This document shows, piece by piece, positions 6,828 through 60,609 of a stretch of DNA of 64,000 bases. The notes under the pieces are model-generated. The model saw only the letters and a list, made by a program, of their open reading frames with translations. It had not been told where the DNA came from and made no database searches. Each line of letters starts with the position of its first letter. Position 1 is the first letter of the stretch. The stretch covers positions 5,873-69,872 of the forward strand of contig CBDUQI010000002.1 in the NCBI GenBank assembly GCA_965369325.1. The letters run 5' to 3'. The translations under genes and the position numbers were made by a program. The DNA comes from an uncultured Gammaproteobacteria bacterium (GTDB lineage Bacteria; Pseudomonadota; Gammaproteobacteria; Steroidobacterales; JBCBZW01).

Positions 6828-6975
6828 CGGCTGTTACTCGACTGATTGTCTAATTGGGGACCGCAAAGCAATCGCGAGGCTAGGAATAACGCCCGTTTCA
6901 ATTGTGATTTAGGTCCTGAATTCTTATCTGCCATCCCTTAGGTTAGTGTAGCCACACAATACGGAGGTGGATCGT

Positions 6976-7953: not shown

Positions 7954-8000
7954 CCGGCCGTCCGATCATAGTCGCGGCCGCTTATGCGGCGCTAATTTCG

Positions 8001-8025
8001 AAGGCCCGGCTCAGTACCGGGCCTT
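8001..8025. terminator. Hairpin between convergent genes (GAF-GGDEF gene and msrQ)
   Basis: AAGGCCCGG-ctcagta-CCGGGCCTT is a perfect 9-bp stem, followed on the + strand by cgTTTaTTT. It sits directly 3' of the msrQ stop on the other strand. Confidence 0.5.
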
Positions 8026-8028
8026 CGT

Positions 8029-8628: not shown

Positions 8629-8661
8629 ACGGTGTATGTTCGCTAGAGGCGTCGAGGTGGG

Positions 8662-9651
<990 letters not shown>

Positions 9652-10048
9652 CTTTCGCTCTACCGCTGTGTAGTTGTGGCTCGCCATGCGCGTACCCGAA
9701 GCCTTTGCGCCAGCCGTCCAACGTTAAAATGTACCAGATTCGAGGCGAACAGGATGTCACGTTTGTCTCACATGCATATTTATCTTAGCGCCATGCGCCC
9801 ATTTGTCCTGCAACACGGCGTGCTTGTGCGAGGCGGACTCGCCCCGACTGCCCGTCAATCTACTGGCACTTATGTGGCCAGGATCGACGACAGCGTACGC
9901 TTGTTGTCGATTTTCCCGCGACCGGCCTCGCCGGCCTCAACTTTCCCGACCTGCAACCGACATAGACAAGAGTTCGCCACCGGATGTTCCCGTGGCAAAG
10001 AACCAGGCCGGGCCCGCGCTGCGCAACCGGTATGCAGGGAAGAGAAGT

Positions 10049-26791: not shown

Positions 26792-27155
26792 CGGCATTTC
26801 GCGCAAACCGATCGCGTTTTGGTTATTGCCGGGCGAGGCGGGTTGAAAACTCTCACGCACCAGTGATCCCAAGCGGAGCGTTGCAAGCGCATGGCTGCGG
26901 TCTTGTTAAGTATTGGAAACTAAGACGGAAGTCGGCCCTACTGCTGGGCGCATTCGGACGCTGCGATGGCGCAAGTGGACAACCGTTGGCGTTTGAAAAT
27001 TCGTGCTGCAGTGCGCTCGTGCTGGTGCGGCTCTGAACGCTGTACTAAGATTATGTTACCCACGTTCCTTGGGGAAAACCCGGCGCATTGCCAACCGCAA
27101 TGGCCTGCGCAGGGAGGCGGATAAGGAAAGCACAAAAATTGTCAGGAGGGGAACT

Positions 27156-27815
27156 ATGCGATATCTCGTTAAGCGCGCACTTGGGTGTGCACTGTTTGCG
27201 ACGATGCTCATCAGTGGCGGAGCTTTTGCTGCAACCACTGCTTATATTTCCGGCCCGGATCTGGGGCTTGAGATTCCGGATAACAATCCGGACGGCTTGA
27301 CCACCACGCTCACCGTCGATGACACCGGTGTTGTGGGTGATGTGTCGGCAGTTGTTATCAGCGCGGACCACACCTGGGTAGGTGATCTGGTTGTTACGCT
27401 GACAGCACCTGATGGCACATCGGTGACGCTGATGGATCGTCCGGGCGTCGTCGATGACATCTGTTGCGGTAACGGAGCAGACATCAGTGCCAGCCTGGGC
27501 TTGGTATTCAGCGATTTGATTCCGCTGCCTGCTGAGGGCGCGGGCGCCAACGGTTGTGGAGCAGTCGGCGTTGATTGCGGCCGTGCCTTTGGTCCGGAAA
27601 GTGCGTTGAGCGCACTAGCAGGGGTGGAAGTCTCGGGCGACTGGACCTTGAGCATTTCCGATAATGCGGGTGCCGACGTTGGCACGCTAAACGGCTTTTT
27701 CCTGGTGGTTGAGACGGGCGAGTCTTCTCGCGCGGCCATGCCAATGCCAGCGATTGCCTTACTACTGTTCGCCGGCATCGCCGGTGCAGGCGTAATGCGC
27801 CGCCGCCGCAGCTAG
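27156..27815 (+). CDS. Stand-alone proprotein-convertase P-domain protein with PEP-CTERM-like C-terminal anchor
   Basis: RBS CAGGAGGGG. Signal peptide ending AFA. P-domain pattern IPDNNPDGLTTTLTV...VVISADHTWVGDLVVTLTAPDGTSVTLMDR...GDWTLSISDNAGADVGTLNGF. Tail PMPAIALLLFAGIAGAGVMRRRRS. Confidence 0.75.
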   Translation: MRYLVKRALGCALFATMLISGGAFAATTAYISGPDLGLEIPDNNPDGLTTTLTVDDTGVVGDVSAVVISADHTWVGDLVVTLTAPDGTSVTLMDRPGVVDDICCGNGADISASLGLVFSDLIPLPAEGAGANGCGAVGVDCGRAFGPESALSALAGVEVSGDWTLSISDNAGADVGTLNGFFLVVETGESSRAAMPMPAIALLLFAGIAGAGVMRRRRS

Positions 27816-27833
27816 GACAACAACACGTCCTCG

Positions 27834-27867
27834 GAACCCCGTCACTTGTGGCGGGGTTCTGTCTTTT
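27834..27867 (+). terminator. Rho-independent terminator after the P-domain gene
   Basis: GAACCCCG-(10 nt)-CGGGGTTC is a perfect 8-bp stem, followed by tgtcTTTTc. Confidence 0.7.
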
Positions 27868-27940: not shown

Positions 27941-28933
27941 ATGTACTACGCGGCCGCCTGCCAAACCAACTTTCCCTCACCCGCCGAGCGCTCGGAAATA
28001 CCCGAACGCACACGCCGGATGTGCCAGATTATCGAGCAGACCATCACCGGCTACGAGCCGTTTTTTGATGTTCGACTGTTGGTGTTCCCGGAGTTTGCGC
28101 ATGCCGTGCCGGCGTACCCGACGGCGGCGGAGCTAAGGCGTCGTCTGGCCGTCAGGCTGCCCAATGAGCACACCCAGGCCTACGAAAGGCTGGCGGCAAA
28201 GTACGGCTGCTACATCCAGAGCGGTACTTTTCTGGAAATTGATGATACGTATCCGGATGCGCTCTTTAACACCACGGTGCTGATTGGCCCTGATGGAGTG
28301 TTGAGCAAATACCGTAAGGTGAATACCTGGATCCCGTGGGAGGTGCATACCAGCCCCCACGATATAGAGGGTTACGCGCCCGAGCCGTTCCCGGTAGTCG
28401 ATACTGAGCTCGGTCGTCTTGGTGTGGCGATCTGTTACGACTGGCTATTCCCCGAGACGATTCGGCAAATTGCCTACAACGGCGCCGAAGTGATCATCCG
28501 CGTCTCCGCCTATATGGATCCTTGGGGCACCGCCAGCCCGATGGACTGGTGGACGTTGATTAACCGCACCCGGGCGCTTGAGAATACCGCCTACGTAGTG
28601 GCCTCCAATCAGGCGGCCAGTTTTAAGAACTATCCGCCGTTCAGTTGGCCGGGCGGCAGCATGGTGGTGGATTATGACGGGCGTGTGCTGGCTCAGGCAG
28701 ACCCTGGTCCGGCAGAAAAAGTGGTGGTCGCGCCGATTGACATCAACGCGTTGCGCAGCGAGCGCGCGCGCCGCCGCGGGCACGATATGCGCTCGCATCT
28801 GCGCAGTGAGATTCACACCTACGCCGCGCAGCCGATGCTGGCCCGTGCGGGCGATCAGCCGATTGATATCGACTCGCTCAATGTGCGTATCGCCGAGGCC
28901 AAACAACGTCTGCCGGGGGCGGATGAGCAATGA
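27941..28933 (+). CDS. Carbon-nitrogen hydrolase (nitrilase superfamily; aliphatic amidase/formamidase-like)
   Basis: Catalytic E-K-C context: LLVFPEF, KYRKVNTWIPWE, VAICYDWLFPE. No signal peptide. The stop overlaps the next start (ATGA at 28930). Confidence 0.85.
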   Translation: MYYAAACQTNFPSPAERSEIPERTRRMCQIIEQTITGYEPFFDVRLLVFPEFAHAVPAYPTAAELRRRLAVRLPNEHTQAYERLAAKYGCYIQSGTFLEIDDTYPDALFNTTVLIGPDGVLSKYRKVNTWIPWEVHTSPHDIEGYAPEPFPVVDTELGRLGVAICYDWLFPETIRQIAYNGAEVIIRVSAYMDPWGTASPMDWWTLINRTRALENTAYVVASNQAASFKNYPPFSWPGGSMVVDYDGRVLAQADPGPAEKVVVAPIDINALRSERARRRGHDMRSHLRSEIHTYAAQPMLARAGDQPIDIDSLNVRIAEAKQRLPGADEQ

Positions 28934-31900
28934 GCGCAGGGTCCGATAAACTGCAGACGCTGCCGGCGTTGATCATGAGCGTAACCTTACTTTGTGTGAG
29001 CGCCTGCGATCGCGCCCCGAACCAGCCCCCGCTTGAGGACAACGCTGCGCCGACGGTGGCCGCCGACCGCCCAGGCGCGGCGCTGATTGCGCTGAACAAT
29101 CGCGGTGTCGCCCTGATGGGGTACTTCGACTACACCGGTGCACGCGATGTCTTCGCCCGGGTGGTCAGGCAGGCCCCTCGGTGGCACCAGGCACAGGTGA
29201 ATCTGGCGATTGCTACCCTGAACCGCCAGCAGCCCGATGATGAAACCCTGGCACTGCAGATCTTGCAGCAGGTGCTGGACGCTGAGCCCGCGCACGTGCG
29301 TGCCAACTACGTGGCGGGGCTGTTGAGGCTGTATCTGGGGGAGTTCGAGCAGGGCACAACACATTTTGAGCAAGTGCTGGCACAGGACAGCGGCGATGCG
29401 TATGCGCACTACTACCTGGGCCAGATTCAAGCTCAACAGGGGCAACTGGCGCCAGCGCTCAGCCGATTCGAGCGGGCGATCGCGCTTGAGCCCTACCTGA
29501 GCAGCAGTTACTACGGGGCAGCGCTGGCGCTGCGGCGCCTGGATCGGGCTGATGAGGCTAGGCAACTGCTCGGCACCTACCAGCGGCTGGAGGACAATCC
29601 GCGCGCTCGGCTGGCGGAATTCAAGTACACCCGGATGGGCCCGAAGGCCGAGGCGTTGGCATCGGGGCGCCCGACAGCGCCAGCACCCGCGCTGCCATCA
29701 GGCGATCTGTTTACGCCGGCCGAGCAAATACTATCGGGTGACTTGAGCACGAGCCACTTGAGTACGGCAGACATCAACAACGATGGTTTGCAAGACATCT
29801 TTCTTGGCGGCGCGGCGGACAGTCAGGTACTACTGGCCGGCGCGTCGGGTTACGTGGTGGATACCTCACACGCACTGGCTGGCATCGGCCAGGTGCGCGC
29901 TGCCTTGTGGGGCGACGTCAACAACGATGGTAATACGGATGTCTACCTGTGCCGCGCTGGGGCCAATCAACTGTGGCTGCAATCGGCCGGCGAATCAGGC
30001 GCGCCGACACAGTGGACTCGCGCGCAGGGCGATGTGGTAGCGGACGGCGTGCGCACCTGCCTCGATGCCGGCCTGTTCGACGCCGATCACGACGGTGATC
30101 TGGACGTTTTCATCGTTAACGCCAATGGCGAGGACGTGCTGCTGAACAATAACCTGGATGGGACTTTCAGGCGCTTGCAGGATCTACCCTCAACCGCACC
30201 GACAAGTTCTCCCGCGTCGCGTCAGCAACTTAGCGTCGACCTGGACGGCGATCGCGATGTAGACATTGTGGTGCTCAACGGCGATGCGCCGCATGTCGTT
30301 TTGTCCAACGATCGGCTTTGGCTGTACCAGTCCGCAACCGGCTTTGAGCGGTTTTCGCAAACCCCGGCGGTGGCCGTGACCGCAGGCGATGTGGATACCG
30401 ATGGTCAAGTGGAACTGTATACCCGCACGCCCGATGGTGCGTTGTGGCGCTGGGTGGATGCGGCGGATGAGGGTTGGGTCTCTGCCCGGATCAGCGCACC
30501 TACGCAACCGGGTGCAGGCGTCTTAATGCTACAGGACTTCAACGGCGACGGTCAGGCCGAGTTGCTGTCGGGAGACGCATCGGGCTGGCGTGTGCTGCGC
30601 CTCAATGGCGAGCACAATGCACAGGTGCTGTACGCCGCTGATGCGCCCGCCACGGCGCCAATAGCGTTGCTGGAAAGCGTTCAAGCAGGCCCTTCGGTGG
30701 CCGCCGCCGGGCTAGATGGATTGCAGCGTTGGCAGCCCGGACCCGGCCGTTATCCATTTGCCGCCTTCTCCTTCAGCGGCAAGGAGGAGCAGGCGGAGTC
30801 GATGCGCTCCAATGCGTCCGGTATCGGTACACGGGTGTCGCTGCGCAATGCCACGCAATGGAGTGTGAGCGACACGTTCGACAAACATTCCGCGCCGGGG
30901 CAAAGCCTGCAACCTTTGAGCATTGGTTTGCGCGGTGCCGCTGCGGCCGACTTCGTCGCATTGGATTGGTCCGACGGCGTGTTTCAGACGGAGCTTGATC
31001 TGGCCGCCGGGCAGCGTCATCAGATTGCGGAGACCCAGCGTCAGCTTGCCAGTTGTCCGGTGTTGTTCGCGTGGGATGGCAGTGAGTATCGATTTGTCAC
31101 CGATCTTCTTGGGGTCGGTGGTATCGGATTCTTCGCCTCGCCTGGGCAGTACAACACCCCGCGCCCGTGGGAGCATGTGTTGCTGCCTGCAGGCGCACTG
31201 GCCGCCCGCGAGGGGATGTTCGAACTAAAACTTACCGAGCCCATGGAGGAGATTGCGTACGTGGACTCGCTCGCACTGGCCGTGCACGATGTGCCGCCCG
31301 GCTGGCACATGATTCTGGATGAGCGTATGGCCACCGACGCCCATCAGCCCAGTGGCGAGCCGGTGTTTTTCCGGCGCAGTGTAAGTGTGCAGCATGCTGA
31401 GAACGAACGTGGCGATGAGGTGACCGCCAGCCTGCAGCACGCCGACCTGCAAGCCGCCCCGCCCGGGACTCTGGACGCGCGCTTTATTGGTCGGCTGGCG
31501 GGTGAGCATGTGTTGACGCTGACGTTCGATAAGCCGCTGGATCAAACGCCCGGACAGCCCGTGCTGGCCGCGGACGGCTGGGTTGAGTACCCGTATTCGC
31601 AAACTGTATTTGCCGCGTGGCAGGCCGGGGAGTTTTATCAGTCGCCGAGCCTGGAAGCGCAGGGGGAGGACGGCGTGTGGGTGAGCCTGCTGCCCAGCTT
31701 TGGTTATCCGGCGGGCATGCCGCGCGAGATGAGTGTCGCACTGAATAATCTGCCGGCGGGTAGTCGGCGGCTGCGACTGCGCAGCAATCTTGAAATCTAC
31801 TGGGATCGCATTCGCGTGGTCTATCGCGAACCCGCGCCGCCGGCAGCGGTGACCCGAGTGCTTAGGCCTGACCGCGTGCGCTTATCACAGACGGGCTTCC

Positions 31901-32286
31901 CGTTACGCACCAGCGGTCCGCAGCGCGTGCCACGTTATGACTACAGCACGCGCGAGGCCTATTGGGATACGCGTTATCAGGCCGGCTACTACACCCGCTT
32001 TGGTCCGGTGACGGCGCTGGTGGCACAGGAGGACGATGCGCTGCTGATCGTTGGTCCGGGTGAGGAGGCGCACATGCAGTTCGCTGACACCCTGCCCGCC
32101 GTCGCGCCCGGATTTGTCCGCCGCTTTGAGTTGCGCACTCGCGGCTATGCCAAAGACATGGACATGTATACGAATACCGGGGAGACGGTGGGACCGCTGC
32201 CGGTGAAAGACGCATCGCCCGCTGCGCGAGCACAGGTCGACAGGCTGCATCGCCAGTACCACGTGCGATATTTGTCCGGGCGCTAG
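28930..32286 (+). CDS. 1118-aa lipoprotein: TPR + FG-GAP/VCBS + ASPIC/UnbV-like region + about 400-aa uncharacterised C-terminal domain
   Basis: Lipobox LLCVSAC. TPRs at about aa 40-230. VCBS-type loops (DINNDGLQD, GDVNNDGNTD, DADHDGDLD, DLDGDRDVD, GDVDTDGQ, DFNGDGQAE). ASGIGTRVSL...SLQPLSIGL. C-terminal CPVLFAWDGSEYRFVTDLLGVGGIGFF. Confidence 0.8.
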   Translation: MSAGSDKLQTLPALIMSVTLLCVSACDRAPNQPPLEDNAAPTVAADRPGAALIALNNRGVALMGYFDYTGARDVFARVVRQAPRWHQAQVNLAIATLNRQQPDDETLALQILQQVLDAEPAHVRANYVAGLLRLYLGEFEQGTTHFEQVLAQDSGDAYAHYYLGQIQAQQGQLAPALSRFERAIALEPYLSSSYYGAALALRRLDRADEARQLLGTYQRLEDNPRARLAEFKYTRMGPKAEALASGRPTAPAPALPSGDLFTPAEQILSGDLSTSHLSTADINNDGLQDIFLGGAADSQVLLAGASGYVVDTSHALAGIGQVRAALWGDVNNDGNTDVYLCRAGANQLWLQSAGESGAPTQWTRAQGDVVADGVRTCLDAGLFDADHDGDLDVFIVNANGEDVLLNNNLDGTFRRLQDLPSTAPTSSPASRQQLSVDLDGDRDVDIVVLNGDAPHVVLSNDRLWLYQSATGFERFSQTPAVAVTAGDVDTDGQVELYTRTPDGALWRWVDAADEGWVSARISAPTQPGAGVLMLQDFNGDGQAELLSGDASGWRVLRLNGEHNAQVLYAADAPATAPIALLESVQAGPSVAAAGLDGLQRWQPGPGRYPFAAFSFSGKEEQAESMRSNASGIGTRVSLRNATQWSVSDTFDKHSAPGQSLQPLSIGLRGAAAADFVALDWSDGVFQTELDLAAGQRHQIAETQRQLASCPVLFAWDGSEYRFVTDLLGVGGIGFFASPGQYNTPRPWEHVLLPAGALAAREGMFELKLTEPMEEIAYVDSLALAVHDVPPGWHMILDERMATDAHQPSGEPVFFRRSVSVQHAENERGDEVTASLQHADLQAAPPGTLDARFIGRLAGEHVLTLTFDKPLDQTPGQPVLAADGWVEYPYSQTVFAAWQAGEFYQSPSLEAQGEDGVWVSLLPSFGYPAGMPREMSVALNNLPAGSRRLRLRSNLEIYWDRIRVVYREPAPPAAVTRVLRPDRVRLSQTGFPLRTSGPQRVPRYDYSTREAYWDTRYQAGYYTRFGPVTALVAQEDDALLIVGPGEEAHMQFADTLPAVAPGFVRRFELRTRGYAKDMDMYTNTGETVGPLPVKDASPAARAQVDRLHRQYHVRYLSGR

Positions 32287-32295
32287 GCGGCACTT

Positions 32296-35148
32296 GTGAG
32301 CACATCGCCCCGCCCGACTCATGCCCCGGCCCGGCGTCCACGCCAGGTGGTTGGGCCCCGCCTGAAGTTGTTGTTGCAGATCGTGTTTGGATTGTTCGCG
32401 TTGCTCGCGGCCAATTCGTTGTATTTGGCGGGCGTCACGCTTGCGGAAACCCTCAGTGGCACGGCGTTGCAGGATCACTTTTATCAGTACATGTTCCTGG
32501 CCCATTTGAGTCTGGGCCTAATACTGATCCTGCCATTCCTGCTGTATGGCATTGGCCATATTGCGAACGCTTGGGATCGGCCTAATCGGCGCGCGGTGCG
32601 TATGGGATACGCGTTGTTCGTGCTTGGCCTCGCGTTATTGCTCAGCGGCTTGCTGCTCACTCGCGGTCTGCCCTGGTTTGAAGTGCGCGCAGACGTCACA
32701 CGCAGGGCGTTGTACTGGCTGCACGTGTTGTCGCCACTGTTGTGTGTGTGGGCGTTCGTGCTACACCGGCTGGCCGGCAAAGCAATCGCTTGGCGTGTGG
32801 GGGCGCGCATCGGCGGATTGGGGCTGGCGGCAGCGCTGGTCGGGTTGGCGTTTCACGCGCAAGACCCGCGCCAGTGGGGAGCTGAGGGGCCGGCCAGCGG
32901 CGAGCAGTATTTTTTTCCCTCGCTTGCGCGCACCGCGACGGGCGACTTTATTCCGGCCGACGCCTTAATGCAGGATGCGTATTGTGCCGAGTGCCACCAG
33001 GACGCGCATGAGCGCTGGCAGCACAGTGCCCACCGCTTCGCGTCATTTAATAATCCGGCCTACCGATTCTCGGTGCGACGCACGCGTGAGCAGTCGCTGC
33101 GACGCGACGGCGATGTATCAGCCGCCCGGTTTTGCGCGGGTTGTCACGATCCGGTGCCGTTTTTCAGTGGCGCCTTTGACGACCCCAGCTTTGATGATGT
33201 GAATCACCCCACCTCGCAGGCTGGCATTACCTGCACCTCGTGCCATGCGATCACCAACATCAACAGCGTGCGCGGCAATGCAGACTACACCATCGAGCAG
33301 CCGTTGCATTACCCGTTTGCTGCCAGCGAGCATGCGGCACTTCAGTGGGTGAACCGCACGCTGGTCAAGGCCAAACCGGCGTTCCATAAAAAGACCTTTC
33401 TAAAGCCGCTGCATCAGGAGGCCGAGTTTTGCGGCGCTTGCCACAAAGTGCATCTGCCCCAAGAGTTAAATGCGTATCGCTGGTTGCGTGGGCAGAACCA
33501 CTACGATGCCTGGTTGCTGAGCGGTGTGTCCGGTCACGGCGCGCAGAGCTTTTACTACCCGGATCAGGCGCAAAGCGATTGCAATGGTTGCCACATGCCG
33601 TTGCAGCCCTCGCAGGACTTTGCCGCCAGCGATCACGATGGCAGCGGCGAGCGCTCCGTGCACGACCATTTGTTCGCCTCGGCCAATACGGCGCTCAGCC
33701 ACTGGCTGAATTTTCCGCCGCCGGTGGACGAGGCCCACCGCGAAATGCTGGAAGGCGCGCTGCGCGTGGATATCTTTGGTTTGCGCGAAGAAGGCACGCC
33801 CGCTGGGCGTTTGCTGGCGCCGCTGCGCCCGCAATTGCCCGCGCTGATTCCAGGGCGTACTTATCTGGTTGAAGTGGTCGTGCGCACACTCACCTTGGGG
33901 CACACCTTTACTCAGGGAACGGCAGACTCCAACCAGGTGTGGCTGGAGGTGACCGCGCGCAGTGGCCGGCAGGTGCTCGGGCGCAGCGGTGCGCGCGAGC
34001 AGGCCACTCAGGCGGTGGACCCGTGGGCGCACTTTATCAATGCCTATGTGCTCGATCGTCATGGCAAGCGCGTTGATCAGCGCAATGCCGAGGACATCTT
34101 TGTTGCGCTGTACAACAACCAGATTCCGCCGGGCGCGAGCGACGTGGTGCACTATCGCCTGCGCGTGCCTGAAGATGCCGGTGCACAGATAGCGATAGAG
34201 GTGGCGGTGCAGTACCGCAAGTTCAACACCCATTACGCGGGCCTAGTGGTCTCGCAGATGGAGGAGACAGGCGCGAGCAATGCTGAGCCGTATATGAACG
34301 ATCTCCCGGTCACTACCCTGGCACGCGATTATCTCGTGTTGCCAGTGGCGCCGTCGGACCGCGACGGTGCCGAGAAAGCCTCGCCGGTCGCGAACTCTGT
34401 GGATGATTCTCCCATCCCGCTATGGCAGCGCTGGAACGACTATGGCATTGGTCTGTTGCGCAAATCCGGCAGCGGCGAGTTGCGCCAGGCCGAGCACGCG
34501 TTTGGCGCGGTGGCAGAGTTAGGCCGGGGGGACGGGCCGATAAATCTGGCGCGCGTGTATTTGCGCGAGGGACGGTTGGATGAGGCGGTTGACGCGCTTG
34601 CCAGGGCGGGGCACAGCGATCCGCCCCCACCCCCTTGGGTGGTGGCGTGGCTCACTGGGCAGGTGAATTTGCAGAACGGCTATCTGGATGAAGCTATCGA
34701 GAACTTTCAGTCTATTGTGGCTACGCGGTTTGCCTCAGCGCGTGCGCGGGGCTTTGATTTCGCTCGCGATTATCGGGTTTGGAATGCGCTGGCGCTCAGC
34801 CGCTTTGAGCGCGCGAAACTAGAGCGCGGCGACGGGCGCCGCGTCGCCCGTGAGGGCTACCTGCAGGGGGCTGTCGCGGCTTACGAACAGGCGTTGGCGC
34901 TGGACCCGGAGAACGTCAGTGCCCACTACGGTCTGGCGCGAACCTGGCAGGCGCTCGGCGATGAGGCTGCGGCCGGGTATCATAGGCAGGCACACGCACG
35001 CTATAAGCCGGACGACAATGCGGCCGATCGGGTGATCGGCATCGCCCGACGCGCAGACCCGGCCGCCGATCATGCCGCCAACGACGTGGTGATCTACGAT
35101 CTGCACCGCGACAGCGGTCAGTACATATCCACCGTCCAACCTGAATAA
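32296..35148 (+). CDS. Membrane-anchored multiheme c-type cytochrome with C-terminal TPR domain
   Basis: About five N-terminal TM helices bearing conserved His (about 32365-32853). Five CxxCH motifs: CAECH 32983, CAGCH 33133, CTSCH 33232, CGACH 33430, CNGCH 33580. TPR-like repeats lie in the last 250 aa or so. Confidence 0.85.
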   Translation: MSTSPRPTHAPARRPRQVVGPRLKLLLQIVFGLFALLAANSLYLAGVTLAETLSGTALQDHFYQYMFLAHLSLGLILILPFLLYGIGHIANAWDRPNRRAVRMGYALFVLGLALLLSGLLLTRGLPWFEVRADVTRRALYWLHVLSPLLCVWAFVLHRLAGKAIAWRVGARIGGLGLAAALVGLAFHAQDPRQWGAEGPASGEQYFFPSLARTATGDFIPADALMQDAYCAECHQDAHERWQHSAHRFASFNNPAYRFSVRRTREQSLRRDGDVSAARFCAGCHDPVPFFSGAFDDPSFDDVNHPTSQAGITCTSCHAITNINSVRGNADYTIEQPLHYPFAASEHAALQWVNRTLVKAKPAFHKKTFLKPLHQEAEFCGACHKVHLPQELNAYRWLRGQNHYDAWLLSGVSGHGAQSFYYPDQAQSDCNGCHMPLQPSQDFAASDHDGSGERSVHDHLFASANTALSHWLNFPPPVDEAHREMLEGALRVDIFGLREEGTPAGRLLAPLRPQLPALIPGRTYLVEVVVRTLTLGHTFTQGTADSNQVWLEVTARSGRQVLGRSGAREQATQAVDPWAHFINAYVLDRHGKRVDQRNAEDIFVALYNNQIPPGASDVVHYRLRVPEDAGAQIAIEVAVQYRKFNTHYAGLVVSQMEETGASNAEPYMNDLPVTTLARDYLVLPVAPSDRDGAEKASPVANSVDDSPIPLWQRWNDYGIGLLRKSGSGELRQAEHAFGAVAELGRGDGPINLARVYLREGRLDEAVDALARAGHSDPPPPPWVVAWLTGQVNLQNGYLDEAIENFQSIVATRFASARARGFDFARDYRVWNALALSRFERAKLERGDGRRVAREGYLQGAVAAYEQALALDPENVSAHYGLARTWQALGDEAAAGYHRQAHARYKPDDNAADRVIGIARRADPAADHAANDVVIYDLHRDSGQYISTVQPE

Positions 35149-35149
35149 T

Positions 35150-37033
35150 ATGACGCAACGCAAGCGCGAAGTTCAAAGCGACGCCACCCCGGACGCTGAC
35201 GACGCCATCATTGCCCGCGCGCTGCGCTGGTCATTGGGCCTGGGGGTGCTGGGGCTGGTGCTACTTGCCCTCGTGTTGGTGCTGTGGCGAGCCGGGCAGG
35301 CACCAGCGCCGATTGAGACCGCGGTGGTAGAGGCGCCCGTGGCCAGGGTGCCGAGCGCGCTATCGGCGCTGCCTGCTCTGCCGTTTACTGACATCACCGA
35401 GGAGGCGGGCATCGCTTTCGTACACCGCAATGGTGCCTATGGCGAAAGCCTGTTGCCGGAGACTATGGGCGGTGGTGTCGGTTTTGCTGATATCGATAAT
35501 GATGACGATCCGGATCTGATTCTGGTCAACGCTCAGCCCTGGCCCTGGCGTGCGCCGCAGGCGGAGGCGGATGGCGCTACCGAGGCAGGTGTGGTGCTTT
35601 ACCTGAACGATGGCAGCGGCCATTTTTCTGAGGTTAGCGCAAGCGCCGGACTGCAGGCGCCAGCGTACGGCATGGGGTTGGCCGTGGGCGATTACAACGG
35701 CGATGGTCTGGAGGATATTTACGTGACCACGCTTGGCACCAACCGGCTGTATCGCAATGCCGGCGATGCGCGTTTCGTGAACGAGACGGCGACCGCAGGC
35801 GTTAGCGGAGATGCCGACGACTGGAGCACCGGTGCTGCGTTTTTTGATTACGACAACGACGGCGATCTGGATTTGTTCGTAACCAGCTATGTGCGATGGT
35901 CGCGCGAGCTGGATCTGGAGGTGGACTATCGTCTGGCTGGTATCGGCCGCGCCTACGGCCCGCCCGGCAACTACGCGGGTTCTCACTCGCGCCTGTATCG
36001 CAACGACGGCCCGGCCAGCGATGGCAACGTGCGCTTTGCGGACGTGTCGGTCGCCGCCGGCATTCATGTAGCCAATCCGGATACCGGCTTTCCAATGGGC
36101 AAGGGGCTGGCGGTCATGCCGGTCGATACCGACCTGGACGGTTATCTGGATGTGGTGGTGGCGAATGACACCGTGCGGAATTTTCTCTTCCGTAATCTTG
36201 GCGATGGAACGTTTACCGAAACCGGTACACTGGCTGGTCTGGCCTTCGATAACTCCGGCAGTGCCACCGGCGCGATGGGTATCGATGGCGGTCACTACAA
36301 CAACGACGATGATCTGGCCATTGCGATTGCCAATTTCGCCAATGAGATGACCTCGTTTTATGTCGCCCCGCAGGCCAGTGGCCTGTTTAGCGACGATGCC
36401 ATCGTGCTGGGCATCGGCCCCGACAGCCGGCGTGTGCTGAGCTTTGGCGTGTTCTTTGCCGATCTTGATCTGGACGGACGGCTGGATTTTTTCCAAGCCA
36501 ACGGGCACGTGGAAGATGAAATTAATTTGGTTCAACCCAGTCAAACCCACGAGCAGGCCGCGCAGGTGTTCTGGAACTGTGGCGATACGTGTCAACGCAT
36601 GTTTGTGCCACTGCCGGGCGATACACTGGGCGATCTGGCGCGCCCGCAGGTGGGCCGCGGCGCAGCCTATGCCGATATTGATGGCGATGGCGATCTGGAT
36701 TTGGCGTTAACTCAGGCGGGCCGGGCAGCACGCCTGTTGCGCAACGATCAGCGTCAGGGTGGGCACTGGCTGCGTCTGAGGTTGCGCGGTGCCGGTATGA
36801 ACCGCTCGGCCATCGGCGCGCGTGTAGAGGTACAGGTCGATGGCGTGACCCAGCGGCGCACGGTGATGCCGGCCCGTGGCTACCTCAGCAGTATGGAGCC
36901 GGTGCTCAGTTTTGGTCTTGGGTCGGCCCGGGAGGTGCAGCGAGTGAACGTCACCTGGCCCGATGGTCGCCGCAAAGTGATTGAGAATCTAGCCGCCGAT
37001 GTTGAGTATCGTCTGACTCAGGGCGAGGAGTAG
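35150..37033 (+). CDS. CRTAC1-family protein, N-terminal signal-anchor
   Basis: TM segment LGLGVLGLVLLALVLVLW. FG-GAP/VCBS loops (ADIDNDDDPD, GDYNGDGLED, DYDNDGDLD, DTDLDGYLD, ADLDLDGRLD, ADIDGDGDLD). C-terminal NRSAIGARVEV...GYLSSMEPVLSFGLG. Confidence 0.85.
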   Translation: MTQRKREVQSDATPDADDAIIARALRWSLGLGVLGLVLLALVLVLWRAGQAPAPIETAVVEAPVARVPSALSALPALPFTDITEEAGIAFVHRNGAYGESLLPETMGGGVGFADIDNDDDPDLILVNAQPWPWRAPQAEADGATEAGVVLYLNDGSGHFSEVSASAGLQAPAYGMGLAVGDYNGDGLEDIYVTTLGTNRLYRNAGDARFVNETATAGVSGDADDWSTGAAFFDYDNDGDLDLFVTSYVRWSRELDLEVDYRLAGIGRAYGPPGNYAGSHSRLYRNDGPASDGNVRFADVSVAAGIHVANPDTGFPMGKGLAVMPVDTDLDGYLDVVVANDTVRNFLFRNLGDGTFTETGTLAGLAFDNSGSATGAMGIDGGHYNNDDDLAIAIANFANEMTSFYVAPQASGLFSDDAIVLGIGPDSRRVLSFGVFFADLDLDGRLDFFQANGHVEDEINLVQPSQTHEQAAQVFWNCGDTCQRMFVPLPGDTLGDLARPQVGRGAAYADIDGDGDLDLALTQAGRAARLLRNDQRQGGHWLRLRLRGAGMNRSAIGARVEVQVDGVTQRRTVMPARGYLSSMEPVLSFGLGSAREVQRVNVTWPDGRRKVIENLAADVEYRLTQGEE

Positions 37034-37080: not shown

Positions 37081-38886
37081 TTGATTGCATGTAAGTACAT
37101 ATCGAGCGCGCGGCCGCGCCCCACGGCGTTGTCCTGGGTGGCAGGGCTGGTACTGGGGCTAAGTAGCGTCGTAGCCCTAGCGCAAACGCGGCCGGGCATG
37201 TTTGTAGACGTCGCGCACAGCAGCGGGCTGGACTTTGTACACTTTAATGGCATGTCCGGAAAATTGTATTTTCCAGAGATGATGGGGGCAGGTGCCGCGT
37301 TGTTTGACTACGACAACGACGGTGATCTGGACGCTTACTTGGTACAGGGGCATCTGCTTGGCGAGGGCGTTGCAATGGCGCAGGCCGCACAGAAACCGCC
37401 GCACCCACTACCGCTGCGTGATCGCCTGTTCCGCAACGATACTCGTATCGGCAAGGACGGCGCTATCAACATCCGCTTTACCGATGTGACGCCGGCCAGC
37501 AAGCTTGATGCGCAGGGCTACGGCATGGGGGTGGCTGCCGCCGATTACGACAATGATGGCTGGGTGGACCTGTACGTAATGAACTATGGGGCAAACCAGC
37601 TGTGGCACAATCGCGGCGACGGCACGTTTGAGAACGTGACCGATCGGGCTGGGGTTGGCGATGCGCGCTGGAGCGTGAGCGGCTCGTTCGTGGACGTTGA
37701 TGCGGACGGTCTGCTGGATTTATACGTCGGGAACTATGTTAAGCATAATTTGCGCAACCGACGTGAGTGCGTGTTGTCCAATCGAATAGCGGACTATTGT
37801 GGGCCCTTGAAAAGCGCAGGTGAGAAAGATCGCCTATATCGTAATCTAGGCGATGGAAAATTTGAGGACGTGGCAGCGCGCGCTGGCACGCAACGTGCCT
37901 GGGGCGGCGCATTGGGCGTGATCACCGCCGACTACAACGCCGATGGACACACCGATATTTATGTGGCCAATGATGGCGTGCCCAATCAACTGTGGGTCAA
38001 TCGGGGCGACGGCACGTTTGTTGACGATGCACTGCTGGCGGGTGTGTCGGTGAACGGCGACGGCATGGCCGAGGCCAGTATGGGTATTGATGCCGCTGAT
38101 TTCGACGGGGATGGTGATACCGATTTGTTCATGACGCATTTGCGCAGCGAGACCAACACGCTGTACGTGAACGATGGTAATGGCTGGTTTGAGGATGAGA
38201 CATTGAAAATGGGCCTCGCGAATCCCAGCATCCCTTACACCGGTTTTGGTATGGCATGGTTTGATGCGGATAATGACGGCTGGCTGGATTTGCTGGCGGT
38301 GAACGGCGCAGTGCGAAAAATCGAGGCCCTGATTGATGCGGGCGACCCCTATCCCTTGCATCAGCGCAACCAGTTGTTCATGAACAGCGGCGATGGGCGC
38401 TACCGCGAACGCACCGCAGCCACCGGTGCTGGCGCCGTGTTTGATTTGTCCGAGGTTAGCCGTGGCGCTGCGTTTGGCGATATCGACAACGACGGCGATG
38501 CCGATGTCCTGGTGACCAACAATGCCGGTCCCGTACGCTTGCTGCGCAATGATGCAGGCGCTGGCGCGGCTTGGTTAGGCTTGCGTTTGCTCGACGGCAA
38601 ACGCGATGCGCTGGGCGCGCGTGCCGTGCTGCAGGATGGCCGTCACCTAACCCGTCGTGCCCGCAGCGATGGTAGTTACGCCAGCGCTAACGATGCGCGC
38701 ATTATTTTTGGCTTGGGCCGCAGGCTGAACACCGCCCCGAAGGCGCCAAAGCATTTTGAAGTGAACATTATCTGGCCGGGCGGGCAGCAGGAGACTTATC
38801 GTGGGCTTGCCCCATCTCGCTACCACACGTTGCACCGCGGTCAGGGCGAGAAGTCGCCCGGCAAGCCAGAGGCAGAAGCAGGTTAA
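37081..38886 (+). CDS. CRTAC1-family secreted protein
   Basis: TTG start with GGAGG 7 nt upstream. Signal peptide ...LVLGLSSVVALAQT. Motifs YFPEMMGAGAALFDYDNDGDLD, ADYDNDGWVD, DFDGDGDTD, GDIDNDGDAD. C-terminal ALGARAVL...DGSYASANDARIIFGLG. Confidence 0.85.
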   Translation: MIACKYISSARPRPTALSWVAGLVLGLSSVVALAQTRPGMFVDVAHSSGLDFVHFNGMSGKLYFPEMMGAGAALFDYDNDGDLDAYLVQGHLLGEGVAMAQAAQKPPHPLPLRDRLFRNDTRIGKDGAINIRFTDVTPASKLDAQGYGMGVAAADYDNDGWVDLYVMNYGANQLWHNRGDGTFENVTDRAGVGDARWSVSGSFVDVDADGLLDLYVGNYVKHNLRNRRECVLSNRIADYCGPLKSAGEKDRLYRNLGDGKFEDVAARAGTQRAWGGALGVITADYNADGHTDIYVANDGVPNQLWVNRGDGTFVDDALLAGVSVNGDGMAEASMGIDAADFDGDGDTDLFMTHLRSETNTLYVNDGNGWFEDETLKMGLANPSIPYTGFGMAWFDADNDGWLDLLAVNGAVRKIEALIDAGDPYPLHQRNQLFMNSGDGRYRERTAATGAGAVFDLSEVSRGAAFGDIDNDGDADVLVTNNAGPVRLLRNDAGAGAAWLGLRLLDGKRDALGARAVLQDGRHLTRRARSDGSYASANDARIIFGLGRRLNTAPKAPKHFEVNIIWPGGQQETYRGLAPSRYHTLHRGQGEKSPGKPEAEAG

Positions 38887-38892
38887 CAATCA

Positions 38893-40626
38893 ATGATGAG
38901 ATTTCCCCCAAACGCAGTGCGTATTGCGTCGGTTAGATCCGATGACCGATCATTCCCCGTCGCGGCGTCACGCGCGATGAAGAGCATGCTAATCGGCGCT
39001 GTGATCAGCGTGATGATCGGCGTCGTTCCGGGCGGCCCGAGCGGCATCGCGCACGCGGTCACGGGCGAGGCGCAAGCCGCTGCTGCGACGCCGGCAGCAT
39101 CGGTGGTGAATGTACCGCACCCGCAATACGATCAGCTTAAGCCACTGGTGCGCAGCCAGCTTGAAACCGCACGCGGGCAGTTTGATCGCACCTTGTCCAG
39201 TCCCTCGGCCGGACGTGAGCACGGGGTTGCATACGGACGGCTTGGCATGCACTACCAGGCCCATCAGCAGCAGGCGGCAGCGCGTGCCTGCTATGTGAAC
39301 GCGGCACTGCTTGATGCGCAGAATTTCCGCTGGCCCTATCTTCTGGCGGTGTACCATGAGGAAGCGGGCGAATTGCTGGAGGCGAGCGAGCAGTATCTGC
39401 AGAGCGTGCGACTTAACCCAGACAGCGTCGCCGGTGCCGTGCGATTGGCGCGGGTGTTGATTCAGCTCGAGCGCCTGGACGGGGCGCAGTCACTGTTAGA
39501 TCAAGTGCTGGCGGCGGAGCCTAAACACGCGGCTGCACTGGCCGCGCTTGGCGACATCGCGGCGGCGCGCGATGAGCACTCCAAGGCCGTCGAGTACTAC
39601 AACGCGGCGCTAGCGATCCAGCCGGAAGCCAGTCAGCTCACCTATCGTGTGGGTATTTCCTACCGGGCGCTGGGCCAGTTGGAGCAGGCACGTACGGCGC
39701 TTGAGCAGCGCGGTGAGCGCATTCCAAGCATTGCCGATCCGCTGCTCGCCTTTGTGCAGGGGCACAAGCTGGGGTCGAGCTTCTTTGTCTCTGAGGGCGA
39801 TAAAGCCATGCGCGGCGGGGATGTTGAGACAGCCGCACGGCTTTTCGATGCCGCCGCGGCGATCAACCCTGAAGATCCGCGTGCCTTGCTGGGGCTGGGC
39901 CAATCACTAGGTGCGGTGGGCAAGCTGGACAGCGCCATTGCCCGGTTCGATCAGGTGCTGCAGATTCAGCCCTACAACACCAATGCGCACTACTTTAAAG
40001 GCGCGCTGCATGAGATCGACGGCGACGACGATCAGGCATTAAGGCATTTTCGCTCAGCAGTGAGCGAGGAGAATGCGCACTTTGAAGCCACCTTTATGCT
40101 GGCCAATGCACTGTTGCGCAAGCGCTTGTTTGACGAGGCGGCGGTGCAATACGGACGCATCGCCAAGGCGCGGCAGGACCCAGAGTTTTTGTATCAGGAA
40201 GGCGTGGCGTGGTTGGCCGGGCAGCGTTGCGGCGCCGCGCAAAACGCGTTGATGGCGGCGGTGACCGTAAAGCCTTCTGATCAGCGTTACATTCAGGCCG
40301 TCTCGCGTTTGTTTTCGGTATGCGAGACGGGGCCAACGCAAAAAGCCACAGCACTGGAGTACGCCCAGCGCTTGTACGATGCACACCCCGGCCTTGAAAC
40401 ATCGGTGTCGCTGGCGATGGCAATGGCCGCCAACGGGCGGTTCGAAGATGCCATCGATTTTCAAACCCAGGCGATTTTTGAAGCCCTAAAGGCCAACATG
40501 GCGGGCATGCCTGAAATTCTGGCAGCCGACCTGGATCGCTATCGCGAGGGTAAGCCGGCTGAGCTCGCGTGGCCGCACGAACATTCCATTTACCAACCGG
40601 CGCGTTTGACGCTGGACCGGCTGTAG
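38893..40626 (+). CDS. TPR-repeat secreted protein (paralog family A)
   Basis: TPR repeats throughout. A signal-like MKSMLIGAVISVMIGVVPGGPSGIAHA begins at ATG 38977, which may be the true start. Confidence 0.75.
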   Translation: MMRFPPNAVRIASVRSDDRSFPVAASRAMKSMLIGAVISVMIGVVPGGPSGIAHAVTGEAQAAAATPAASVVNVPHPQYDQLKPLVRSQLETARGQFDRTLSSPSAGREHGVAYGRLGMHYQAHQQQAAARACYVNAALLDAQNFRWPYLLAVYHEEAGELLEASEQYLQSVRLNPDSVAGAVRLARVLIQLERLDGAQSLLDQVLAAEPKHAAALAALGDIAAARDEHSKAVEYYNAALAIQPEASQLTYRVGISYRALGQLEQARTALEQRGERIPSIADPLLAFVQGHKLGSSFFVSEGDKAMRGGDVETAARLFDAAAAINPEDPRALLGLGQSLGAVGKLDSAIARFDQVLQIQPYNTNAHYFKGALHEIDGDDDQALRHFRSAVSEENAHFEATFMLANALLRKRLFDEAAVQYGRIAKARQDPEFLYQEGVAWLAGQRCGAAQNALMAAVTVKPSDQRYIQAVSRLFSVCETGPTQKATALEYAQRLYDAHPGLETSVSLAMAMAANGRFEDAIDFQTQAIFEALKANMAGMPEILAADLDRYREGKPAELAWPHEHSIYQPARLTLDRL

Positions 40627-40638
40627 AGCCCGGCGGGC

Positions 40639-42435
40639 GTGGGGCAGTGTTCGCGCCAGCCAGCATCGGCGAGCCGGCGACCGTGCACCATGCCGGGTGC
40701 TGGCCGTGTCGGTGTCATCAAGAGCACGGCGTTGGCAGTGCTTGCCACCGTAGCGCTCGCGGGCTGTAGCGAGCCCGGTACCCAATCGGGCCCAGGTACC
40801 CAATCAGATTATGAGCCCACGCTCTTCGAAGACCGGGCGCAGGCGTCCGGTCTGCACTTTGAGCATGCCAACGGCATGGTGGGCGAGCTGTATTTCGCCG
40901 AGATGATGGGCGCAGGTGCGGCACTGTTTGACTACGACGGCGATGCCGATCTGGATGTCTGGCTAGTGCAGGGCGGTAATCTGGGCGCCGACGCTACGCC
41001 AGTCAACCGGGCCGATCAGCTTTTTCGCAACGACAGCGCCGACGGCCAGCTACGCTTTACCAACGTCACGCAACAGGCGCAAATCGCGGCCACCACCTAC
41101 GGCATGGGTGTTGCCATTGGCGACATCGATAACGATGGCGATGAAGATGTATTCCTGAGCAACTTCGGCCCCAACCAGTTGTGGCGCAACAATGGCGACG
41201 GAACGTTTACGGACATCAGTGCCAGCGCGGGTGTGGGTGATACTCGCTGGAGTGTTAGCGCCAGTATGGCGGACCTGGATGGCGACGGCTGGTTGGATAT
41301 CTACGTCGGCAATTACGTCAGCTACACCATCGCGGGCCATAAGCCCTGCCGCTCGACCACCAGCGCACGCGATTACTGCTCGCCGCTGGTGTACCGCCCG
41401 CAAGGCGACCGACTGCTGCGCAACGCGGGCGATGGCCGCTTTGAAGATGTGACGGGTGCTAGCGGCGTGGGCGGTGCCCGCGGTGGTGCGCTGGGCGTCA
41501 GTGTGGCGGACTTCAACAGCGACGGCCGCCCCGATATCTATGTGGCGAACGATGGCGTGGCCAATCTGCTGTGGATTAATCAGGGCGGCATGCGCTTTGT
41601 TGAGCAGGCCGCGCTGGCGGGGGTTGCAGTGAATATGAGCGGCGCGCCGGAAGCCAGCATGGGCGTGGATGCGGGCGACTTCGACGATGATGGCGATGAG
41701 GATTTGTTTATGACTCATCTAGCCCGCGAATCCAACACGCTGTATCTGAACGACGGCAAGGGCTGGTTTGAAGACCGCACTGTGGGCATGGGGCTGGCCG
41801 GGCCAAGCCTGGCGGCGACGGGTTTCGGCACCGGCTGGTTTGACTACGACAACGACGGCACGCTGGATATCTTCGCGGCCAACGGCGCGGTTACCCGATT
41901 ACAGGCACAAATGGATGCCGGGCTCGCGCACCCGTTGCGACAGCGCAACCAGCTGTTCCGCGGCGAGTCAGGCACCGGGTTTGTCGAGGTGAGTGCCACT
42001 GCAGGCGCGGCCTTTCAGATCGAGGATGTCACCCGCGGTGCAGCCTTCGGGGATGTGGACAACGATGGTGACACCGACATCGTGGTCACCAACAACAACG
42101 GCCCAGCACGTTTGCTGATTAATCAGGCGGGGCAGCAGCAGGTCTGGCTGGGGCTGCAACTAACAAGTACGCAGGGGCGCCCGGCATTAGGTGCACGCGT
42201 GCGTGCAACATTGCGCGGTCGCGGCACCGTGTGGCGCCGTGCGCGCAGCGATGGCAGCTACGGCTCAAGCCGCGATTCGCGTGTGTTAATCGGCCTGGGG
42301 CGGGGCGATGCCGCGCAAGGCGCGGTTGAGGCGATTCATGTTTATTGGCCGAATGGCGGGTCTGAGGATTTCGGCGCGCTCGCGCCCGGGCGGTACCACC
42401 AGTTGGTACAGGGGCAAGGTCGTGCGCTGCAGTAG
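40639..42435 (+). CDS. CRTAC1-family lipoprotein
   Basis: Lipobox VALAGC (the start may be ATG 40690). YFAEMMGAGAALFDYDGDADLD, GDIDNDGDED, DLDGDGWLD, DFNSDGRPD, GDFDDDGDED, GDVDNDGDTD. C-terminal ALGARVRA...DGSYGSSRDSRVLIGLG. Confidence 0.85.
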   Translation: MGQCSRQPASASRRPCTMPGAGRVGVIKSTALAVLATVALAGCSEPGTQSGPGTQSDYEPTLFEDRAQASGLHFEHANGMVGELYFAEMMGAGAALFDYDGDADLDVWLVQGGNLGADATPVNRADQLFRNDSADGQLRFTNVTQQAQIAATTYGMGVAIGDIDNDGDEDVFLSNFGPNQLWRNNGDGTFTDISASAGVGDTRWSVSASMADLDGDGWLDIYVGNYVSYTIAGHKPCRSTTSARDYCSPLVYRPQGDRLLRNAGDGRFEDVTGASGVGGARGGALGVSVADFNSDGRPDIYVANDGVANLLWINQGGMRFVEQAALAGVAVNMSGAPEASMGVDAGDFDDDGDEDLFMTHLARESNTLYLNDGKGWFEDRTVGMGLAGPSLAATGFGTGWFDYDNDGTLDIFAANGAVTRLQAQMDAGLAHPLRQRNQLFRGESGTGFVEVSATAGAAFQIEDVTRGAAFGDVDNDGDTDIVVTNNNGPARLLINQAGQQQVWLGLQLTSTQGRPALGARVRATLRGRGTVWRRARSDGSYGSSRDSRVLIGLGRGDAAQGAVEAIHVYWPNGGSEDFGALAPGRYHQLVQGQGRALQ

Positions 42436-51298: not shown

Positions 51299-51481
51299 GT
51301 GCCTACAGCCTGCCTGATTTTACGCATAGTTACGGCGCCGGTCACGGCCGCAGAGCAATTGCTTGCTGATGCGCCGCGACAATTCCCACGTACTAACCGA
51401 TTATACTGCGGGTTCTTCTGTCACCGGGCTGAGCAGAACGCCCGTCACCCCCAACCCGCGTGATTGCGCAAGCCAGGCTCT

Positions 51482-55062: not shown

Positions 55063-55228
55063 TTGCCCGTGTCCGTGCCTTCAGTCCGTTTGGTCATCGC
55101 GCGCCGGTAGGCCGGAAAGTACCTGAGCCGCGCTGCGCGCCGCGCCGAGTGTCTTGTTACCTCACGGTTTATCCTGGCCCATCGGCATGAGGCTTGTCTT
55201 GTGTCGCTGTGCTTGCAAGACTGCGGGC

Positions 55229-57211: not shown

Positions 57212-57216
57212 GCGCC

Positions 57217-60580: not shown

Positions 60581-60609
60581 GGGCTTTTTGGCAGCGTCGA
60601 GGCGCCCGG

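Follow-up and report, generated by a model that had tools for sequence, protein, structure and literature searches.

A Conserved Multiheme Cytochrome Fusion as a Possible Route for Electrons across the Bacterial Inner Membrane

We have analyzed a window of 64,000 nucleotides (nt) from an uncultured gammaproteobacterium of the order Steroidobacterales (contig CBDUQI010000002.1 of assembly GCA_965369325.1), which encodes a multiheme cytochrome of 950 amino acids (aa). The cytochrome gene is a real, conserved, full-length fusion, and its product consists of four parts in the order of a five-helix membrane domain, a pentaheme cytochrome c domain, a beta-sandwich and a TPR tail. On balance, we lean towards the view that this protein is a self-contained bc-type transmembrane electron conduit, built from one polypeptide in the inner membrane. 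Fusions of a membrane b-type cytochrome with a multiheme c-type cytochrome form the simplest known link between the quinone pool and the periplasm. The present family is widespread and unstudied, and it may offer electrons a way through the inner membrane that has not been described before. Some of its cultured hosts are aerobes not known for extracellular electron transfer.

Architecture and conservation of the fused cytochrome

The product of the open reading frame (ORF) is identical in sequence to a database protein (P0001) encoded on an 82-kb NCBI/ENA contig. More than 5,900 relatives were found in a metagenome protein collection, and the best 120 of them are full length and 58–66% identical. 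Since thousands of full-length homologues exist, a chance ORF or a pseudogene was ruled out. When aa 1–720 were used as the query against the representatives of 50%-identity clusters, 667 proteins matched at an expectation value (E) of <=1e-30. In a scan with one genome per species, relatives occurred in at least 587 species genomes from six or more phyla, and the identity across phyla held at 54–63%. The host groups among the matches listed are Gammaproteobacteria, Planctomycetota, Verrucomicrobiota, Acidobacteriota, Latescibacterota, Methylomirabilota and Betaproteobacteria, and the cultured hosts include Rhodopirellula europaea 6C, Stieleria mannarensis and Saltatorellus ferox Poly30. The author of a preliminary description of this gene, made from the sequence of the window, did not recognize the fusion as a described family, which agrees with our searches. 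Full-text literature searches found no paper on the fused cytochrome family or on its link to the neighboring CRTAC1-family genes, and the database names of the relatives are generic only ('multiheme c-type cytochrome', 'TPR repeat protein', 'hypothetical'). One JGI name includes 'cytochrome b subunit of formate dehydrogenase', and we took this unconfirmed label as a lead only.

The AlphaFold2 model of the cytochrome, with 64 homologues as input, has a mean predicted local distance difference test score (pLDDT) of 80 and a predicted template modeling score (pTM) of 0.79. The fusion of five transmembrane helices, five CxxCH motifs and a TPR tail, as it had been described before, was confirmed by the ORF, the AlphaFold2 model, Pfam and the full-length conserved homologues. 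The three named parts of this protein, which had been called tripartite, are present, whereas a fourth part, the beta-sandwich at aa 489–684 in the AlphaFold2 model, had been overlooked.

The five CxxCH motifs are located at aa 230, 280, 313, 379 and 429, and their positions at nt 32983, 33133, 33232, 33430 and 33580 are exactly those given in the preliminary description. Among 20,000 shuffles of the protein, the mean number of CxxCH motifs was 0.005 and no shuffle contained more than one. Ten of the 11 cysteines lie within these motifs, and all 10 cysteines outside the membrane domain are motif cysteines. Conservation was followed in a close set of the 120 homologues and in a distant set of 81 full-length members at 33–56% identity. 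Loss of the motifs in homologues had been named as a point that would speak against the prediction, and all five were kept in 120/120 close and 81/81 distant homologues, while no cysteine outside CxxCH was conserved in either set. A few distant family members, among them P0186 and P0192, have CX4CH as the first heme motif (YCGNSGCH, SCGTADCH), and their other four motifs are standard. The candidate distal heme ligands H246, H364 and H458 in the c domain and H536 in the beta-sandwich are invariant. In the distant members, M434 was kept in 79/81 and H579 in 63/81.

A check against Cytochrome_C554 and multiheme families had also been proposed, and the Pfam model Cytochrome_C554 (PF13435) matched aa 230–317 above its cut-off (34.3 versus 20.8 bits). 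Among 14 diverse members, 13 matched the same model. Cytochrom_NNT gave only weak scores, in 6/14 members (best E 0.0089), and NCBIfam ExtKL matched at E 5e-4, far below its cut-off. A profile of 14 sequences covering aa 196–705 (profile A3) was searched against PDB and matched the pentaheme cytochrome c552 of Thermochromatium tepidum (5ZE8) at E 1.4e-11 over hemes 1–3, MccA (4RKM) at E 2e-4, the Geobacter multiheme selenoprotein MccSep (9WT9) at E 8e-4 and cytochrome c554 (1BVB) at E 8.5e-4. The profile similarity to the known pentaheme proteins is weak beyond heme 3. By these matches, the region of aa about 200–684 is placed in the pentaheme c552/ExtKL/MccSep group. The multiheme nature of the c-heme part had been noticed correctly, and what had been overlooked is that this module is of the known pentaheme c552/ExtKL/MccSep type with a putative immunoglobulin (Ig)-like stem.

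Between the heme domain and the TPR tail, beta strands were predicted at aa 489–684 with a pLDDT of mostly 85–97. The invariant residues of this beta-sandwich are R530, G535, H536, G541, T542, D544 and W549. In a survey with local domain hidden Markov models (HMMs), the beta-sandwich always accompanied the heme domain in the relatives. These HMMs, which were built from the close homologues, lacked the sensitivity for a reliable classification of architectures in distant relatives. The last 250 residues or so had been called TPR-like, and this description was borne out. Pfam TPR families matched at aa about 750–893 above their cut-offs (TPR_19 43.2 versus 25 bits, TPR_11 37.8 versus 26.8 bits and TPR_2 31.5 versus 27 bits), and the AlphaFold2 model showed TPR-like helices at aa 709–928. 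When the tail was searched with Foldseek, MamA, OGT and consensus TPR structures were matched at E of about 1e-4, with a probability of 1.0 for MamA and the consensus TPR structures.

In terms of descent, profile comparison indicates that aa about 200–684, and only this region, are most closely related to the soluble pentaheme c552/ExtKL/MccSep proteins. In a paper of 2025, c552, ExtKL, GSU2801 and cable-bacteria cytochromes were united in one pentaheme family, which was classed as potentially catalytic and as having pentacoordinate hemes (PMC11976967). The present protein resembles c552, ExtKL/MccSep (PDB 9WT8/9WT9) and cable-bacteria PHC in having five CxxCH motifs in a helical cap, in its similarity over hemes 1–3 and in the common CxxCHM(P) fifth motif. 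Those proteins are soluble, whereas the present protein adds a membrane domain of five transmembrane helices and a TPR tail. MccSep is a polysulfide reductase, the monomer of which consists of an alpha-helical five-heme cap followed by an Ig-like beta-sandwich stem; in this enzyme a Cys ligates heme 2, and the selenocysteine (Sec) is essential (PMC13510729). According to the AlphaFold2 model, aa 200–684 of the present protein would share this layout of a cap and then a beta-sandwich. However, the heme-ligating Cys and the catalytic Sec/Cys of MccSep are absent in the present family, because no cysteine outside CxxCH is conserved.

In the loop SGVSG at nt 33520–33534 (aa 409–413), S409 is invariant. 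This residue comes to lie opposite Cys239 of MccSep, the heme-2 ligand, if the weak HMMER alignment is extended by two residues, and we regard this as a lead only. If S409 does correspond to Cys239 of MccSep, a strong sixth ligand could be missing at one of the c hemes.

The membrane domain and its putative b hemes

Hydropathy revealed five hydrophobic segments in the N-terminal region, and the AlphaFold2 model showed helices at aa 21–54, 61–92, 98–121, 133–159 and 166–187 with a pLDDT of about 80–93. These results confirm the five hydrophobic helices that had been claimed for aa 24–186. The domain carries His residues at positions 61, 70, 88, 143 and 157. H70, H88, H143 and H157 are invariant in 120/120 close homologues, whereas H61, which had been listed together with them, is Tyr in 104/120. 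In the distant set, H70 was kept in 80/81, H143 in 79/81, H88 in 66/81 and H157 in 67/81 members. Accordingly, conserved His pairs in orthologs, which had been named as a test of the prediction, are present. G74 and G118 are the only other residues of the membrane domain that reach 90% conservation in the 81 distant members.

The c-type hemes are attached in the periplasm, and the part after helix 5 should therefore be periplasmic. With five membrane crossings and a periplasmic C-terminal part, the N terminus would be cytoplasmic, and helices 2 and 4 would both lead from the periplasmic to the cytoplasmic side. An Arg-rich N-terminal tail and a first loop free of charges are in line with this orientation. 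Two motifs that are cytoplasmic in this topology, RPNRRAV in the helix 2–3 loop and HRLAG behind helix 4, are nearly invariant in the core clade, and they point to a functional site on the cytoplasmic side.

H70 and H88 are located on helix 2, and H143 and H157 are located on helix 4, with paired depths that match across the two helices. The spacing is 18 residues on helix 2 (5.0 turns) and 14 residues on helix 4 (3.9 turns), which places the His residues of each helix on a common face. The four conserved membrane His in paired depths suggest two bis-His b hemes. The putative ligands are H70 and H143 for a b heme near the periplasmic face and H88 and H157 for one at the cytoplasmic face, and this is the pattern expected of stacked bis-His hemes. 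The conserved G74 and G118 would fit close heme packing, as in other b cytochromes. We consider that a membrane domain acting like a di-heme b domain is a reasonable inference. A heme-handling domain like that of CcsA/CcmF was ruled out, as there is no Trp-rich WWD-type motif among the conserved residues.

Several results weigh against two b hemes in this domain or against the conduit as a whole. A 12-sequence profile of the membrane domain, searched against all PDB sequences, found no cytochrome b. Pfam searches of 12 diverse membrane domains at E up to 10 gave no Ni_hydr_CYTB (PF01292), b561 or cytochrome b, and NCBIfam searches with the membrane domains gave no relevant match and no Ni_hydr_CYTB equivalent. 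Foldseek with the model of the domain alone found nothing significant (best E 0.58, STEAP2 1.3, Dcytb 3.2), and no quinone site was recognized in the membrane domain. H88 and H157 are absent in about 18% of the distant members, to which alignment error may contribute. In addition, the sole conserved partner, the CRTAC1-family protein described below, has no recognizable cofactor site, so the chemistry that is served is unexplained.

The preliminary description had compared this domain with the di-heme b subunits PhsC and FdnI and with hydrogenase cytochrome b. This likeness was not upheld, given the lack of a Ni_hydr_CYTB or b561 match and a different layout of the His residues. Like FdnI/PhsC/HyaC, the present part is a small helical membrane domain with four His, two of which are about 14 residues apart on one helix. 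In FdnI, which has four helices, helices 1 and 2 each bear one heme-ligand His and helix 4 bears two. In contrast, the present domain has five helices, with two His on helix 2, two on helix 4 and none conserved on helix 1. A different lead comes from DUF4405 (PF14358), which matched below its cut-off of 26.7 bits, at 18.0 bits in the full protein (aa 106–157) and 20.1 bits in the domain alone. This weak match spans helices 3–4 and appears in 3/12 members even at E up to 10. We count it as a lead because purification and pyridine hemochrome have demonstrated heme b binding for DUF4405, with four central His (PMC11334425). In DUF4405/MsrQ/PepSY-like proteins, as in the present domain, there are four central conserved transmembrane His, which are thought to hold two b hemes that pass electrons through the membrane to partners in the periplasm. 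However, DUF4405 has six helices and the present domain has five, and the match stays under the Pfam cut-off (20.1 versus 26.7 bits). A match of DUF7139 to the membrane domain in Pfam was also sub-threshold.

If the b hemes are real, they would make the five-helix domain the type of a new family of heme-b membrane proteins. If they are not, what is left would be a tethered cytochrome of the pentaheme c552 group, likewise uncharacterized but less remarkable.

The proposed electron route and its alternatives

In the electron conduit that we propose, the two b hemes would form a wire across the membrane, and this wire would connect to the five covalent c hemes of the c552/ExtKL/MccSep-type cap, a module assigned by homology. 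The cap would rest on the beta-sandwich stem, which supplies the invariant H536, and the TPR tail would follow. In this way, the protein would link the periplasmic hemes to the quinone pool or to some other donor on the cytoplasmic side, such as a cytoplasmic reductase, without an Fe-S, flavin or molybdopterin subunit. The pentaheme module would be the likely terminal redox site, and the CRTAC1-like propeller and the TPR proteins would probably be non-redox partners that serve in scaffolding or substrate binding.

A precedent for such a protein is CbcL of Geobacter sulfurreducens, a fusion of a di-heme b domain and a nine-heme c domain that links the quinone pool to periplasmic hemes. Its authors called CbcL unique, as a transmembrane b cytochrome joined to a soluble multiheme c domain without accessory subunits (10.1101/2022.08.31.506072). 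Both proteins are single polypeptides that combine a transmembrane b-type part, in our case with putative b hemes, and a periplasmic multiheme c part without an Fe-S, flavin or molybdopterin subunit. On the other hand, CbcL has nine c hemes and a b domain of the Fdn/Hyd/Phs type, whereas the present protein has five c hemes and an N-terminal five-helix domain without a Ni_hydr_CYTB match. Its c domain is of the c552 type and is followed by the beta-sandwich and the TPR tail. The location of F525 in a transmembrane helix of CbcL suggests that the b domain of CbcL is C-terminal. Judged by analogy of design, CbcL is the closest functional analogue, with parts that are non-homologous and differently arranged. 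Accordingly, the novelty of a b–c fusion holds for the specific family, for which our searches found no describing paper, but not for the principle, for which CbcL is a precedent. The present family would be the second such example after CbcL, independently assembled and far more widespread, considering its occurrence in at least 587 species genomes. NapC/NirT/CymA/ImcH are likewise membrane-anchored multiheme c cytochromes that join the quinone pool to periplasmic partners. They have a single anchor helix (up to three in ImcH) and no b heme.

As for direction, electrons would more probably flow outward, from quinol to the periplasm. We infer this weakly by analogy, because the characterized analogues without large catalytic subunits, that is, CbcL, the MsrQ/DUF4405-type cytochromes and the reductase MccSep, work outward. 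The opposite direction is a serious rival, especially in aerobes, although we consider it unlikely. In this case, the pentaheme module would oxidize a periplasmic substrate, possibly at a heme with open coordination, and the b hemes would reduce quinone at the cytoplasmic face. The protein would then form one half of a redox loop that conserves energy, comparable to formate dehydrogenase-N or to the route from c554 through cM552 to ubiquinone. A b heme of H88/H157 at the cytoplasmic face, together with the conserved RPNRRAV and HRLAG motifs, would fit a quinone site there, and aerobic hosts such as Rhodopirellula, Stieleria and Saltatorellus could pass the electrons to oxygen. Moreover, four invariant distal His (H246, H364, H458 and H536) for five c hemes leave room for a catalytic heme. 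However, M434 or H579, which are kept in most of the distant members (79/81 and 63/81, respectively), could serve as a fifth ligand. For such an oxidation, neither a substrate nor a catalytic residue was identified, and the characterized pentaheme relatives are either a reductase, namely MccSep, or of unknown role.

The preliminary description had placed the CRTAC1 proteins at the end of an outward route, in which quinol is oxidized by the b domain and electrons pass via the c hemes to CRTAC1 proteins docked on the TPR tail as terminal acceptors. In this proposal, the adjacency was right, and it is strongly conserved. We surveyed the neighborhoods of 81 non-redundant related loci, 67 of which had enough sequence, and a full-length CRTAC1 homologue of about 50% identity was located directly downstream of the cytochrome in 60/67 of them, often with a gap within tens of bases. 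Among the 81 loci, no other redox protein was a conserved neighbor. Relatives without the membrane domain keep the heme domain, the beta-sandwich, the TPR tail and the CRTAC1 linkage. One of them (P0243, 734 aa, at 6250–10205 of locus L084) has a signal anchor only in place of the five-helix domain, and its gene overlaps by 4 nt with a CRTAC1 gene, which in this locus is upstream, and is adjoined by a TPR gene. Therefore, the stable unit comprises the pentaheme domain, the sandwich and the TPR tail with the CRTAC1 gene, and the five-helix domain behaves like a module for coupling that was added to it in the main clade. This is what one expects of a device for electron entry or exit. Another pairing of CRTAC1-family genes with heme-protein genes is known from gene clusters of non-anammox hydrazine-synthase homologues (PMC12758564).

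The hand-over of electrons to CRTAC1 itself was unsupported. In its favor are the linkage, which is retained in the variant without the membrane domain, the role of TPRs as protein-binding modules and a gene array that is rich in TPR and CRTAC1 genes. However, the CRTAC1-family partner has no conserved Cys and no CxxCH, and its only two conserved His are H92 and H453. It has an N-terminal anchor helix, and its conserved residues follow the Asp/Asn/Gly pattern of the calcium sites in FG-GAP propellers. The one relative with a solved structure, human CRTAC1 (9ETN, matched at E 1.4e-22), is a non-redox matrix protein. Because it has no redox-cofactor motif, the partner is more likely a scaffold than an electron acceptor, as its sequence suggests, and we regard CRTAC1 as the terminal acceptor as rather improbable. 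In any case, the near-obligate pairing with the cytochrome offers an experimental route into a large bacterial family of unknown function.

We also consider it improbable that the five helices merely anchor the protein, or bind a non-heme ligand such as a metal ion, so that a tethered pentaheme cytochrome would exchange electrons with soluble periplasmic carriers. The absence of a significant sequence or fold match to any cytochrome b would fit such an anchor, as would the variants that have only a signal anchor and keep the same neighbors. However, a simple anchor would not need five helices, and the four buried His and two Gly are the most conserved membrane residues across 33–56% identity. 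The depth pairing of the His residues and the helix faces on which they lie fit bis-His heme sites. Finally, a redox sensor or a purely structural envelope protein instead of an electron-transfer enzyme is very improbable. The TPR- and propeller-rich surroundings do resemble envelope assembly more than a respiratory operon, and one related locus has a two-component system in its vicinity. However, the protein has no output domain in the cytoplasm, the cytoplasmic loops of the AlphaFold2 model are only a few residues long, no regulator is a conserved neighbor across the related loci and seven presumed hemes would be costly for a scaffold.

Returning to the electron conduit, we can extend it to a larger system, which we put forward as a doubtful possibility. 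The cytochrome may be at the center of a periplasmic oxidoreductase system that is linked to quinone, has not been described so far and is widespread among mostly aerobic or facultative bacteria from six or more phyla. In such a system, the cytochrome with two b and five c hemes would carry electrons across the membrane, a catalytic heme with open coordination would be located at the position of the Cys-ligated heme 2 of MccSep, where an invariant Ser-Gly loop is found here, and CRTAC1-like calcium propellers and TPR proteins would capture or present a polymeric or insoluble substrate. If true, this would give the bacterial CRTAC1 homologues their first function.

Neighboring genes and other observations

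The cytochrome gene is located in a tightly spaced array of genes on the + strand (Table 1).

Table 1. Coordinates of the cytochrome, its domains and the adjoining genes in the window.
Feature	Position	Strand	Remark	Basis
Cytochrome gene	32296..35148	+	GTG start, 950 aa	ORF call
Five-helix membrane domain, putative di-heme b	32356..32856 (aa 21-187)	+		AlphaFold2 helices, conserved His
Periplasmic alpha-helical pentaheme c domain	32893..33750 (aa about 200-485)	+		CxxCH motifs, Pfam, PDB profile match
Beta-sandwich domain	33760..34347 (aa 489-684)	+		AlphaFold2 strands, conservation
TPR tail	34420..35079 (aa 709-928)	+		Pfam TPR families, Foldseek
CN_hydrolase gene	27941..28933	+	4-nt overlap with next gene	Pfam
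TPR + FG-GAP + UnbV_ASPIC protein	28930..32286	+	1118 aa; ends 10 nt before cytochrome start	Pfam
CRTAC1-family beta-propeller, membrane-anchored (FG-GAP repeats + UnbV_ASPIC)	35150..37033	+	Begins 2 nt after cytochrome stop	Pfam
CRTAC1 paralogue	37081-38886	+		Pfam
TPR protein	38893-40626	+		Pfam
CRTAC1 paralogue	40639-42435	+		Pfam
TPR protein	42308-44095	+		Pfam

A strong terminator-like hairpin at 27832–27861, with a 13-bp stem, 8 G-C pairs and a T-rich tail, lies between the CN_hydrolase gene and an upstream gene for a protein with a proprotein-convertase P-domain (27003–27815). This hairpin probably marks the start of the cytochrome-containing operon, of which CN_hydrolase is likely the first gene. 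Homologues of the 1118-aa protein were found upstream of the cytochrome in 14/59 loci by tblastn and in 22 of about 80 loci by clustering. The family of the downstream TPR protein recurs in 13 related loci, and CN_hydrolase recurs in 8–11.

The surroundings of the cytochrome at 23643–44095, in which the P-domain gene is also located, form an array of unusual length in which TPR and CRTAC1-family genes alternate, with four CRTAC1 paralogues of about 577–627 aa. In a related locus from Planctomycetota (L002), a divergent gene for a truncated globin (Bac_globin, 9525–9911, - strand) is located directly upstream of the cytochrome homologue, which may be a coincidence. Fusions of truncated globins with pentaheme cytochromes of this group exist in cable bacteria (PMC11976967).

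Elsewhere in the window, an MsrP/MsrQ-like pair is encoded on the - strand at 8029–9687. The ORF at 8662–9687 has a molybdopterin oxidoreductase domain, and the MsrQ-like ORF at 8029–8628 encodes a multi-helix protein of 199 aa with membrane histidines. MsrP/MsrQ is the textbook case of a heme-b membrane protein that feeds a periplasmic enzyme. An hhalign comparison of the membrane domain of the cytochrome with this MsrQ-like protein showed no similarity (probability 0.5%). The region at 9803–12571 encodes a secreted-type M12B (reprolysin-like) metalloprotease of 922 aa with a DUF11 repeat domain.

A second TPR-rich cluster is located at 51464–63570. It contains four TPR-sulfotransferase fusions (51464–53611, 53599–55062, 55154–57211 and, on the - strand, 60610–63570), the last of which additionally has a 2OG-Fe(II) oxygenase domain, and a sulfotransferase without a TPR match (57217–58647). 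A TPR-Asp/Asn beta-hydroxylase (58575–59930) and a 2OG-Fe(II) oxygenase (59930–60580), both on the - strand, adjoin these sulfotransferases.

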